Source of the DNA: Leucoraja ocellata
Lineage: Eukaryota
NCBI GenBank assembly: GCA_036785375.1
Contig: JAWMAR010000093.1
Coordinates: 744,001-808,000 of the forward strand
Direction of reading: 5' to 3'
DNA length: 64,000 nucleotides
Shown in pieces: positions 12,301 through 18,300 of this stretch. Both the position numbers and the translations under genes were made by a program. Numbering within the stretch: the first letter of the stretch is position 1; every line of letters starts with the position of its first letter. Under the pieces are notes generated by a model that saw only the letters and a list, made by a program, of their open reading frames with translations, did not search any database and had not been told where the DNA came from.

Positions 12301-15300
12301 TCATACATCACTGACCTCAAGGCTTTCTCCTGCACTTTCCCCAAATACTGGGATCAAAACCTTAGTCACTATCAGGCTATGTTCTGCTTAAAGACAGAAA
12401 GGAAGTGATTAAAACTCCTGGCTATACATCCTTTGTGAATAAAATGCAAATCATGGAGTTTTTATAAACAGGTCAAAAGTACAAGTCTTCCACCATCACA
12501 AATTTCCTAGCAGCCAACTCAAGCGTAATCACTCAATTTGTGTTTATCTTCTGTGAAAAGTGTGTGGATGCAACCATGGGCATTAAGAAAGGCAAAGATA
12601 ACTAAAAAAACATTACTTACTATAGCTTGCATTTAAATCATCAGACATATCTCCATTGTAGTTACCACATAGACCACAAGGTTTGCCTTTGTGTTCCTCT
12701 GTGAGCTTAATATAAACACCAGAGAGCCCATCCCATGCCAAGGAAAATCCAAATGTCGTTTTCACAAGTATATAATCAGCAAGACGTTCAAAGAATGCGT
12801 GCCCGATTGTCTGAGGCAAAAGCAATCTGAAAGAAAGATATTAAAACATTTACAGTAATTGTATAAGAATCATAATGCTAATTAATTTAAAGATTTGCAG
12901 GCATTACAATACTCTTTGTAAACACACACTTCCTCTGAAGATGCATTTGGTAAAATCTACATCTTTTTATTAATATCAAGATACTCATTTATTAATCCAA
13001 TTAAAAACATTCACTGATCCCTGTACCATCTCNNNNNNNNNNNNNNNNNNNNNNNNNNNNNNNNNNNNNNNNNNNNNNNNNNNNNNNNNNNNNNNNNNNN
13101 NNNNNNNNNNNNNNNNNNNNNNNNNNNNNNNNNNNNNNNNNNNNNNNNNNNNNNNNNNNNNNNNNNNNNNNNNNNNNNNNNNNNNNNNNNNNNNNNNNNN
13201 NNNGTAAAAGAGAGGAAGCAACTTGAGATGCAGAATCTCAAAATTGTTGGTACGTCTCGTTTGCCTTCCTCATATGAGTGAATGCTGCTTTTTAGTAGAG
13301 GATGATCGAGAGCTTGTTACGGGCGGTCACAGTAGCGCAGCGGTAGAGTTGCTGCCTTACAGCGCTTGCAGCACCGGAGACCCGGGTTCGATCCTGACTA
13401 TGGGTGCTGTCTGTATGGAGTTTGTAGGTTCTCCCCGTGATCTGCGTGGGTTTTTGCCGAGATCATTGGTCAATTGGTTAATTTTATTATATAGTACTGT
13501 AAACCCTCTTTATAATGAACTATGGGGGAGGTGGGGAGGGGGGGGGGGGGGGGGGGGGGAGTAGAATGGTGTCCGTACTAACTGATTAAGGAATTATCAT
13601 TTTAGGTAGCACAAACAAAGAACTGCAGATGTTGGTTGATAGGCAAAAGAACACAAAGTGTTGGAGAAACAGTAGGTCAGGCAGCATCTCTGGAGAACAT
13701 GGATAGCTGTTGTTTCAGGTCAGGACCCTTGGTTCTTGGTCTCCTGGTCCTCCAAAAATATTCCAAATGGAATTTAAACAGGAGGTGGGGGAGGGTGGAC
13801 CTAAGCAAAAAAGGGTTCTTCAGACTGAGTCAGTCTGCTAAGTTATTCCAACACTTTGTGTCGTTTCACCTTAAAGCTAGGTGCCGATACTGTTAGTCTG
13901 CACCAGCGAGTTCATCTTCTCCAACTGGTTCACCATCATTTTGACGAGGCTGTTGTAGCGGCTCACATTGCAGACCATGGCTGATAACTATTTTTACAGG
14001 CCGCTGCCACCAACAGCATATGCACTGTCAGTGTGGGGCTCCCTCCCCTCTCACCAGCTGCCACTTACTTCTGTTGACCATCACTTTGTCCACTCCACCC
14101 TCCACCGCTGCCTCCTCTTCCTTCTCCTGTCGCTTTGTCCACTCTGCCACTCCTCCTCCTCCCCCACAGTCGCCAACATCTTCCAAGGTGGAGTATGTCG
14201 GCAACTCCGGGAGAGAAGGAGGAGGTGACGATGGAAGGGGGGGGGGGGGGGGGGGGTGGGAGGGTGAAGACAAAGGGTGGACAACGTGCCGGCCAACAGG
14301 AAGAAGTGGCAGCTGATGAAAGGGGAGGGATCCCAATGGTGACAAAGTGCACCCTGTCTGTGGTGGCAGCCTGAAGAAAACGTTGTCAGCCAAGGGCTAC
14401 AACATGAGCCACAACCACAGTGGCGTCAACCTGACTATGCAGCAGCTGGTGAAGAAGGCCTCACTGGTGCACCTTGCGAGCTGGGCATGATGCCAGTAGC
14501 GAGGGCTGTAAGCGGGTGGGGAGACAGTGCCAGCGTGTGTGGCGTTGGAAGTGCCAGCCGTCCGCTATAACCGAAATCCATTACCAAGACGTTTGTTAAA
14601 ACAAAGGTTTACTGTATAATAGAAATTTGCTTCCGTCGTTGTTTTCGCTAAGATATGCACCTGATTCGTCCTTTTGTAACTGAATGACCAAGAATCGTTA
14701 TTTCCTCTTCGTTTGAAAAAAACAAGCTTAAAGTCCTCGAGCAAGAGTACGGTGAAGATGTGCATTCTTCATTGTTGTGGACCTGAATAAACAGAAGCAA
14801 AACAGTGAGATAAAGGCAACTTTGTGACGTGATTAATGAGTGGTCAGTGCACGCCGTTAATTCATACCTCCACCATATACCGGGGCTCCGTTGTCCGACA
14901 ATCTTTTGCAAGAACATAAGAACATTTTCCAGGAAAATAAAAGTAAAGGCCATCGAAAGTCTCAAAATGGTATTGCCCCCATGACTTGCATGTTCCCGCT
15001 ATGTCCACTCCAAGATTTGGAACTAAAGAAATTTAAAAAATAAAATGTTTGATTATGATTAATTTTTGATTATGATTATTTCTGGCCCTATTATTTCTTG
15101 GATTGAACAGTTTCCCTGAGTGCAAGTGGCACAAATAATTAATTCAGACACACCCATTAAACAAACAACCACCAATAAGTAAATTATATAAATACATTAA
15201 GTTATAAAAACAAAGACATAAATATAACTGGGCTGACGTGACGAAAAAAATATTTTTACTAAACTTAAACAAATTATAGGTAAAGGAGTCTATTTTTTTG

Positions 15301-18300
15301 GCTTCAGGAAATTGTAAACGTTTAGTTTAGTTTAGAGATACAGCGCGGAAACAGGCCCTTCGGCCCACCGAGTCTACGCCAACCAACAATCCCCACACAT
15401 CGAAACTATCCGACACACTAGGGATAATTTACAATTATACCAAGCTAATTAACCTATAAACCTGTACGTCTTTGGAGTGTGGGAGGAAACCGGAGCTCCC
15501 GGAGAAAACCCATGCAGATCCCGGGGAGAACGTACAAACGCCGTACAGACTGCACCCGTAATCAGGGTCGAACCCGGGCCTCTGGTGCTGTAAGGCACCA
15601 ACTCTACTGCTGCGCCACTGTGCCGTCCCTTAAAGTTCTTCTATATCTCCAGAACGTACTCTGCACTGACCTGTCTGACAACGGCTCCCATTAGCCTGGC
15701 GCTCCCTGCAGTCACATTTATCATCCCGACTGCAAAAGCCCCCATTGAGGCAATCATGTGAACAAACACCTGGAAGTTCAAAGAAATTGGTTATATTGCA
15801 GAAATGGTCACGAAATAACACAAAATCAAGATAAATACCAACATCCCAGATTATTTCTATAAATTGCTTAAAGTGTTTGGCAAATCAGATAGCATCTATA
15901 TAAAGAGAAAGAGAGTGTTCAGGTCAATGATCTTCCACTTCAAACTAAGACATGAACTCTGTTTCTTCCTCACAGATGAGCCTCGACCAGTTTAGCATTA
16001 CCAGGTAGTGACAAGGAACTGCAGATGCTGCTTTATGCGAAAAGACACAAAGTGCTGGAGTAACTCAGAGGGTCAGGTAGCAACATGATCTCCAGAGATG
16101 CTGCCTGACCTGCTGAGTTACTCCAGAACTTTGTGTCTTTTTGAGTGTTATCTATACTTTTTGTTTTTTATTTCACTCCTGAAGAATTTGCCATTATGAG
16201 TTAGATAATGCCCCGAGACTTAGAAGACCAAAATAGTCCACTCCATTAGTTTCTTCTAATATTTCTAAAAAAAAATTCAGTATAATCTTCTGAATTCTGA
16301 GGAAGATAAACCTGATTTCTACAAGTTCCCTTCATAATAGGAGACTAGCACCATCTCTTCCTTCCAATCATTAAACTTCACTGATGATACACAGAATTGC
16401 CCACAGATGTTTGGTAGTGGTTTAAACAGGACTTTGCATATTTATGAGAATAAATACAATCCCATGAATTTTAATTGATATATTTAATGCACACATAATT
16501 AAATAAATAAATCGTAGTCTGAGAAGACTATAGGGCTTTAACTTAAAGTTGATTTTGGCTGTCACGAGAATGAAAGGCTGAATAACCTCCTTCATTGCAA
16601 CTCCTTTCCATGATTCTATGTCTTTGTCATGATATTTGTTTCGAAGCTTCAAAACATCTCATTTGAAAAAACATTTATAATGTTAAAAATAATCTGTTTG
16701 ATGCTGTATTTCATTTCATACATGCAACTTGCACATCAGTAATATAACTGCTAACTTTTAATTGACACATTTAGTTCCTTCCAAATATTAAAGGATATTT
16801 AATGTTAGAGTCATGTAATTGGTTCTACCTAGGCAGATGTACCGTCAAAATAATCAATGTCCAGGACAAGCACAGAGAAGGAAATCAAATGTAGAATAAA
16901 TTGCTCCTCTTCCCACAGCTACATTACACCAGTCTTCGAGGAAAAGTAAAGAATATCATTCAGGACTTGACCATTTGTCTTTTCCACCATTTAGTGAGGC
17001 AATGGCTGATCTGTGATTGAACTTCACAAACTTCATAACTTTTGGCATGTCCTTTATTATATTGGTTAACATTAATCTATAAATCAGTGAGTTAAAATTA
17101 GCAATTCATCAACATGTACTGCACTTTGCAAAAGGTGGTTTTAAACTTCTACCATCGTTTGCGTGAGGGTTTGGTTTTCCTGCACTAGTTTCCTCAACCA
17201 AAATGGTTTCTCACGATGTTTCAGGTAATTTATTTTATTGTCTTGAAAACTTAGGTGTAATTACCACATTTTTGTAAATCTATGGAATATAAACTCAATT
17301 TATGTAATCTGCAATTTAACCATTGGGTCCAGATATAACTCCAGTAATTCTGTGTTATGCTAGATGATCTACATATAGTCCGGAGCTCTCCTTTTTTTCC
17401 CGAAATCTTTTGGAGGAGCAGTTCTACTCATGTTTTTATTGCTGACAAGCATTTCCACCTTTGCAGAAATGCCAAGTTGCTGTTTGTGGCTGTGAAAGTA
17501 CGTGCCTATCCATTCCAGTCTAACTCAGAGAGGTAATGATCAGAGGTTTGTTTCTCTGAAAGAACAAGTCATTTGAGCTTGACAACATGTGAAATGTAAC
17601 TGTTAGCTAAGCAGTGTTAACCATGTCAGAAATTATTTTGTGGAACTTAAAAGACTTATAAACGGTATTGAACAATCTATAGCCGACGAAAATGTCAGAT
17701 GGAATTTTCGCACTGTGTACACATTGTATATATTTATTACTTGGACAGGGGCCACAGAGTGGCACGGGTGGGGGACTGTTTGGTGAAATTTGACAAATGT
17801 AAAAATATTGTACTGGAAACGTTTGTATAGTCTCTGAAATTGTCGGATGAATTTTGTTTGTTTGAATGGTTCAGGAATTGTATATATTTATCAATTGAAT
17901 AAAGTCTATTTTGAAATTTAAAAAAACACAAAAAAAACCATGTCAGAAATGTTCCCTTTGCCCTTTCCACCATCTCCACAATGCAAAAGTAATGTTTTCT
18001 CTCACTTTTCTTTGCATATTGACTGTCGTCATGTCGTTTATTTGTCACATACGCGTACAAGATGTGCAGTGAAATGAAAAATGTGTCTCTCTGCCCACAG
18101 ATTCTGCCTGATCTTCAGAGAATTTCCAGCATTTTCCATTTTTATTTCAGATTTTAAGCATCTCGAATTTTTTGATTTGCAAACAGAAGTTAAAATGTTG
18201 TCAGGTCTTCCTCGTAACTCTCTTAAGTTTTTGAAGTTCCCTCAGTCTGTTTAGATAAGAATGAGAGATGCAAAGTGCTGACTGATGCCATGAAGGAAGC

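Follow-up and report, generated by a model that had tools for sequence, protein, structure and literature searches.

A multicopy TA-flanked TIR element encloses a folded-back linker-histone gene fragment in the skate Leucoraja ocellata

Gene-capturing TIR elements of animals have been described as Pack-TIRs by Tan et al. (2021), who report four multicopy families in 100 reference genomes, one example having three copies (PMC8277862). TcMariner-type elements were frequent carriers (115 of 370), and the pipeline required at least 90% identity to a unique parent (PMC8277862). According to a term search of the supplements, the elephant shark has 0 Pack-TIRs and skate is absent; the word 'hairpin' does not occur in the main text (PMC8277862). 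In plants, Pack-MULEs capture gene fragments at high copy number, and young, parent-like copies are reported to yield more siRNAs (PMC5861414). Members of the pogo/Tigger group are described as having a TA target site and TIRs of at most 40 bp, those of Tigger measuring 8-33 bp in general and 18-23 bp in Chondrichthyes (PMC7386202, PMC9219625). Finally, the Nmy and Tmy hairpin RNAs of Drosophila simulans, directed against the protamine-derived Dox genes, come from expressed and genetically required siRNA loci (PMC10292708).

The element described here lies in the skate Leucoraja ocellata, within a window of 64,000 nucleotides (assembly GCA_036785375.1, contig JAWMAR010000093.1, positions 744,001 to 808,000), to which all coordinates without a locus name refer. 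Like a Pack-TIR, it encloses host non-TE sequence copied by repeated transposition; unlike the Pack-TIRs as presented by Tan et al., its family occupies 590 or more places, its coding cargo is folded back and its closest parent is apparently dead (PMC8277862). It agrees with described pogo/Tigger elements in the TA and in its 25-bp TIRs, and differs from them in that no transposase or partner was found for it in our searches and its interior is host-gene cargo. High-copy capture is common to plant Pack-MULEs and the skate family, but the latter belongs to another superfamily and kingdom, and its cargo forms an internal inverted duplication. As in Nmy and Tmy, the inverted repeat is homologous to a sperm-chromatin-type gene, but the skate family is dispersed and decays freely. 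The family works like a multicopy Pack-TIR with an unusually high copy number, a coding cargo in fold-back form and a donor apparently lost. We consider it very probable that it is an old, non-autonomous TA-flanked TIR element in which the 5' half of an H1-like gene is frameshifted and duplicated as a fold-back, and which was likely spread in trans by a pogo/Tigger-type transposase and is likely neutral today. The first-pass annotation of the window knew of no description of such a case. Gene capture by animal TIR elements is already on record as Pack-TIRs (PMC8277862), whereas no prior description of the skate family was found in the literature; Repbase and Dfam lay outside this search, and an unnamed repeat entry is possible.

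Structure of the element within an OTOGL intron

The window copy is a single copy of a non-autonomous TA-flanked TIR element, 1,118 bp long (13497-14614); its parts are listed in Table 1. The first-pass annotation had described an imperfect palindrome of about 570 bp at 13899-14471 between TA-flanked TIRs, and all of these features are present. Over 195 nt, the two arms of the palindrome (13899-14093 and 14277-14471) show 72% complementarity, the protein readings quoted for both are found where they had been placed, and both TIRs are directly bordered by TA. An inner stem (14150-14185 with 14189-14224) closes the palindrome on a 3-nt loop. The two consensus TIRs match at 22 of 25 positions, and the TIR motif is found at 718 places in the assembly, against 0 for the control.

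Between the left subterminal region and the left arm lies part of a repeat that is self-complementary and very common; this fragment accounts for about 165 nt of the element, and we take its core on the minus strand to be Penelope-like, resembling a minimal hammerhead. An Rfam scan of the window region and six further loci found no hammerhead, minimal forms possibly scoring below the models; its output consisted of generic miRNA-hairpin matches below threshold. The same repeat, with its hammerhead-like core and a presumed Penelope origin at both sites, also occurs at 16011-16143. In the window copy alone, the fragment is split by an insertion of 85 nt, which we regard as a separate repeat because part of it recurs upstream of locus L055 and in L132. 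Contigs of the DNA runs X1 and X3, possibly from the source sample, cover the window copy in pieces with 1-6 differences, which argues against an assembly artefact.

The annotated location in an intron of OTOGL is borne out: three OTOGL proteins place two successive exons on the minus strand, at 14788-14660 and 12828-12616, to both sides of the element, which is therefore intronic. A search with a flanking exon gave 49 matches among 53 candidates, mostly named OTOGL or otogelin-like. The intron measures 1.8 kb and is mostly occupied by the element, with the splice donor about 46 nt away. The element and the neighbouring OTOGL exons are bracketed by a very abundant SINE-like repeat, present in two inverted copies (13317-13462 and 15497-15633, 85% complementary).

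Table 1. Positions of the element's parts, of the adjoining OTOGL exons and of related loci elsewhere in the assembly
Feature	Position	Strand	Remarks
TA target-site dinucleotide, left	13495..13496		TA at 18/28 distinct left ends across copies
Left TIR, 25 bp	13497..13521	+	family consensus CAGTAAACCCTCGTTATAACGGACC
Left subterminal region with G run	13522..13613	+	common to a sister family with identical ends and another interior
Fragment of very common self-complementary repeat	13614..13863	-	interrupted by an insertion in the window copy
85-nt insertion	13731..13815		window copy alone; splits the repeat fragment
Left arm, H1-like 5' coding fragment	13864..14185	-	donor codons about 7-113 plus a few extra bases
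3-nt loop, fold-back centre	14186..14188		near donor codon 7
Right arm, inverted copy of the left-arm fragment	14189..14472	+	ends earlier at the 3' side; same deletion
GC-rich tail, poorly conserved, and right subterminal region	14473..14589	+	subterminal region from about 14558
Right TIR, 25 bp	14590..14614	-	
TA target-site dinucleotide, right	14615..14616		TA at 12/22 distinct right ends across copies
OTOGL exon directly upstream of the host intron (in transcription direction)	14660/14661..14788	-	protein mapping and GT donor
Following OTOGL exon (VWD domain), on the downstream side of the intron	12616..12828	-	protein mapping
Broken 3' remnant of P0010-type H1 gene	L150 1430-1990 (G000:C3037 about 72380-72940)		
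Second-family derivative loci	L066-L077 (e.g. L068 811-1995)		
Parent-like loci of the second family	L227 1401-3731; L251 1254-3687		

Dispersal of the family and its probable transposase

A search with the palindrome returned at least 106 matches (40 of 1,368 candidates scored). A motif of 25 letters from the junction where the repeat fragment meets the left arm, searched with at most 2 mismatches, is found at 590 places in the assembly, 63 of them exact, against 0 for the control. Since the motif recovers 9 out of 38 copies that had been located independently, this number scales to about 2,500, while a Poisson estimate from the 63 exact places gives about 1,600. The element is likely to occupy roughly 1,500-2,500 places in the assembly; near-identical pairs are common there, and the haploid copy number is lower accordingly. 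Near-identical loci occur in pairs on many contigs (e.g. C435, C314 and C395), and the two members often mirror each other on a single contig; this pattern suggests haplotigs that were retained and inflate counts.

Whether the TIRs and the cargo travel together was examined from both sides. Among 30 loci picked by the junction alone (haplotig pairs included), the left TIR is present at 21 and the right TIR at 10; one or both are present at 25, both together at 6, and 20 loci extend well into the right arm. Nine of 30 loci picked by the TIR alone carry the H1 arms; several others possess both ends and the repeat fragment around a different interior. The flanks of 82 loci not picked by TIR differ from one another, and both ends are present at 20 of them (duplicates included). 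Counting distinct ends only, 28 left and 22 right ends with differing flanks are available, and TA borders 18 and 12 of them, respectively; the remainder mostly show TG, CA, TC or TT. TIRs and cargo are present together at many unrelated sites. The proposal of a Pack-type TIR element bearing an H1-like gene piece in fold-back form is upheld in this respect: the cargo is multicopy, enclosed by both TIRs and mobile, not a local insertion. A sister family (L125, L126, L131, L132, L133, L139) has the same TIRs and repeat fragment and another, GC-rich interior without an H1 match.

The element had been called Tigger-like. The TIR length of 25 bp and the TA at the ends of copies that have diverged by 13% fit this label, but the autonomous partner was not found, so that the assignment stands as a resemblance. 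The search covered 70 of 104 DDE_1 matches, with 24 further candidates unscored, and no autonomous element with matching TIRs lies beside any of the 70. Judged by TIR length and TA alone, a pogo/Tigger-type transposase likely acted in trans. Elsewhere in the assembly, a cluster on G000:C373 (58465-325695) comprises at least 10 long open frames of 599-681 aa that encode DDE_1 domains and lack TIRs of the type sought; it looks as if domesticated genes of Tigger origin had expanded there, and similar clusters occur on C207 and C258.

The linker-histone cargo and its donor gene

Pfam hmmscan with PF00538, a check set beforehand, matches neither arm, and the window is absent from the 78 PF00538 matches of a genome-wide profile search; four other element copies reach 18-20 bits against the cut-off of 22.4. 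We attribute the miss to decay and deletion. Pieces of the H15 domain are found in the left arm (a helix piece at about 13880-13996) and in the right arm (about 14371-14472). A frameshifting deletion of about 34 nt has removed about 11 aa from both arms, and no intact globular domain is encoded. The stretch 'LSVVAA/LKK' spans this deletion in both arms, which corrects the first-pass annotation.

Both arms align with an intact host gene that bears PF00538: identity is 83% across 101 nt for the right arm (E 1.6e-24) and 73% across 108 nt for the left. An H1 profile built from 21 H1 proteins, the donor clade being left out, scores 17.7 and 10.9 bits on the window arms, with a maximum of 1.6 in 200 shuffles, and 26.2 and 38.7 bits on the consensus arms. 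Hence the H15/H1 identity proposed for the arms stands as clear homology, both at the nucleotide level and by the non-donor profile, but not as a recognizable domain: the PF00538 cut-off is missed and the domain is broken. By these comparisons, the cargo descends from an H1 gene. A search with the donor protein yields at least 145 matches, mostly short, with stops and spread over many contigs (150 of 1,580 candidates scored); element copies thus produce false H1 matches.

The first-pass annotation had spoken of a fragment captured twice, which is not supported. The consensus derived from 17 copies (1,042 bp) has arms that are identical at 253 of 277 positions (91%) overall and at 185 of 195 (95%) in the core, and both arms bear the same deletion of about 34 nt relative to the host paralogs. 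Because both carry this frameshifting deletion, we favor one capture followed by fold-back, and the identity of the consensus arms likewise points to a single capture and subsequent inversion.

The closest intact protein is the Rhinoraja 'histone H1.5-like' protein P0010, to which the consensus left arm is identical at 51 of 54 aa, compared with 45 of 54 aa for the best paralog of the own genome; cargo and P0010 also have the N-terminal tail in common. In the protein tree, the arms, P0010 and a Hypanus protein fall unresolved within a batoid group (90/90, with an unsettled bootstrap). For one host H1-like gene, the named homologs belong to Rhinoraja, Amblyraja and Leucoraja, as expected of a skate genome. 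A sister paralog is labelled spermatid-specific H1 or protamine-like by Atlas with high confidence, a prediction that we treat as a lead only. Loci L055/L056 were the first candidates for the donor and were dropped, since the P0010 type matches better and shares the N-terminal tail. The divergent genes L159-L166 on G000:C435 were ruled out as well. These form four pairs; they are intronless genes derived from H1 with open frames, their globular domain is truncated and degenerate and escapes PF00538, and they carry a histone-type 3' stem-loop.

No intact ortholog of the donor was found in the host assembly, where whole P0010 reaches at most 107 bits (150 of 1,580 candidates scored). Its C-terminal part finds a 3' remnant alone, on C3037 (28 of 28 candidates scored). 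The remnant contains one stop and one frameshift and keeps what we take to be a histone-type 3' stem-loop; its 5' half, roughly the part carried by the element, is missing and is also absent from the 40 kb upstream. Contigs of X1 and X3, again possibly from the source sample, cross the truncation over 780 nt with zero differences. Among the matches listed (17 of 970 candidates), there is no P0010-type protein from Amblyraja or Leucoraja. Taken from these sequences, the donor gene appears to be dead in the host genome. The cargo is of host, non-TE origin and its source is not flanked by TIRs; the host H1-like loci L060-L065 lack the element ends. The best DNA match given above lies below the 90% identity to a unique parent that Tan et al. 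required (PMC8277862); that value serves to select young cases and sets no bound on the mechanism.

The H1-like clade has been captured by two unrelated TIR families, since a piece of the sister H1-like gene of the L055 type is carried by another family, small and of Tigger type, whose DDE_1 parent element is present in the genome. Its cargo comprises promoter, 5' UTR and N-terminal codons; the parent TIRs are found at 10 of 40 loci, and its motif at 13 places with a sensitivity of 10 of 12 known loci.

Fate of the hairpin and competing explanations

In the OTOGL pre-mRNA, the window copy would give an imperfect hairpin that would then leave with the spliced intron. The host-transcribed strand is predicted to fold at -349.7 kcal/mol (z -18, with 0 of 100 shuffles as low) and the consensus element at about -600 kcal/mol; the window copy has a paired run of 27 bp, G-U pairs allowed. 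The intronic position and this strong predicted fold agree with the long hairpin that had been expected from OTOGL transcription, but there is no sign that its pairing is kept up. Our maintenance test comprises 36 distinct two-armed copies, left after 15 duplicates had been dropped from 51; given a thousand or more copies, a few functional ones would escape notice. Identity between arms is 0.738 within a copy and 0.729 between copies. Derived changes common to both arms number 106 versus 95.7 +/- 8.0 expected, a value reached by 217 of 2,000 permutations, so that the test for upkeep of pairing by selection or conversion is negative. CpG sites have diverged from the consensus by 34-35%, other sites by 13%. 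The window copy does not stand out by its arm identity, which ranks 13th lowest of 36, and the centre of the hairpin is mostly lost in 6 of 20 copies. The copies decay freely, and the hairpin is likely neutral or dead cargo today. Two small runs, presumed to be RNA, barely touch the arms and give evidence neither way.

These figures bear on the proposal that the window copy, or some copies, work today as a hairpin-RNA locus whose small RNAs act against H1-like transcripts. The predicted fold is what such a locus would need, paralogs of the donor clade are intact in the genome, and hairpin RNAs do silence protamine-derived genes in D. simulans (PMC10292708). A match of 21 nt to the paralogs L055, L062 or L065 is nevertheless kept in the 195-nt arm core by 0 of the 36 copies; the window copy retains not even 12 nt, whereas the consensus arms share perfect matches of 24-28 nt with L055. 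Arm co-evolution is without sign in the 36 copies, and in the window copy G-U pairs show no significant bias toward the transcribed strand (18 versus 11, p 0.26). OTOGL, moreover, is known chiefly as an inner-ear gene, whereas the donor family is predicted, by the Atlas lead, to be of spermatid type. With arms that decay independently, the dsRNA or small-RNA role suggested at the outset is not supported so far, and we judge such a locus quite improbable. A past role is also unlikely, if slightly less so: during its spread, the element would have placed a near-perfect germline hairpin of about 280 bp, homologous to the H1-like gene, in a thousand or more sites and in host transcripts, and small RNAs or methylation could have silenced the donor in trans, which then died in rajid skates. 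A broken 3' remnant here and an intact gene in Rhinoraja are what invite the idea. We rate it low because the 13% decay may predate the split from Rhinoraja, which retains the gene, and because close paralogs survived; fishes of this kind are reported to evolve slowly (PMC8303890). If true, a vertebrate transposon would have killed its own cargo's parent gene in trans, in an H1-like clade raided twice by TIR elements.

Two further explanations concern the nature of the element itself. Movement as a Penelope-type retro-element, with incidental TIRs, could draw on the 165 nt or so of very common repeat, whose core we presume to be of minimal-hammerhead type. Minimal hammerheads are carried by Penelope-like elements (PMC6155905), but homology between the skate copies ends exactly at both TIRs with TA outside, by which this mode is largely refuted; the repeat fragment is internal and common to the sister family without H1, and Rfam gave no hammerhead match in the window region and six loci. 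We regard it as highly improbable. There is next to no chance that an H1 pseudogene of local origin, or a fold-back artefact of the assembly, merely sits inside a MITE here. The failure of PF00538 on both arms and the many near-identical mirrored pairs of the assembly might hint at this, but they have to be set against 590 junction matches and 36 distinct two-armed copies, against an arm difference of 28%, which an artefact would not produce, and against short-read contigs that cover pieces of the window copy.

We therefore return to the TIR element with captured cargo, whose history may have run as follows. A small TIR element would have acquired the common-repeat fragment, presumably before the histone piece because the sister family keeps the same ends and fragment with another interior. 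It would then have taken up codons 7-113 or so of an H1-like gene orthologous to the Rhinoraja 'H1.5-like' gene, probably by template switching or gap repair. The deletion of about 34 nt would have destroyed the frame, and the piece would have folded back around the 3-nt loop. From such a master, copies may have spread to roughly 1,500-2,500 places of the partly duplicated assembly until activity ended and free decay set in.

The family shows that a captured coding fragment can be dispersed in hairpin form by a vertebrate TIR element, to sites numbering in the hundreds or thousands; in animals, such large-scale spread of a gene piece after capture has rarely been reported. It represents an old case of a kind that a pipeline built on young parents overlooks, and the element has preserved the 5' half of its donor, a gene apparently dead in the host genome. 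Because two captures from one H1-like clade occurred independently, intronless genes open in the germline may be capture hotspots.
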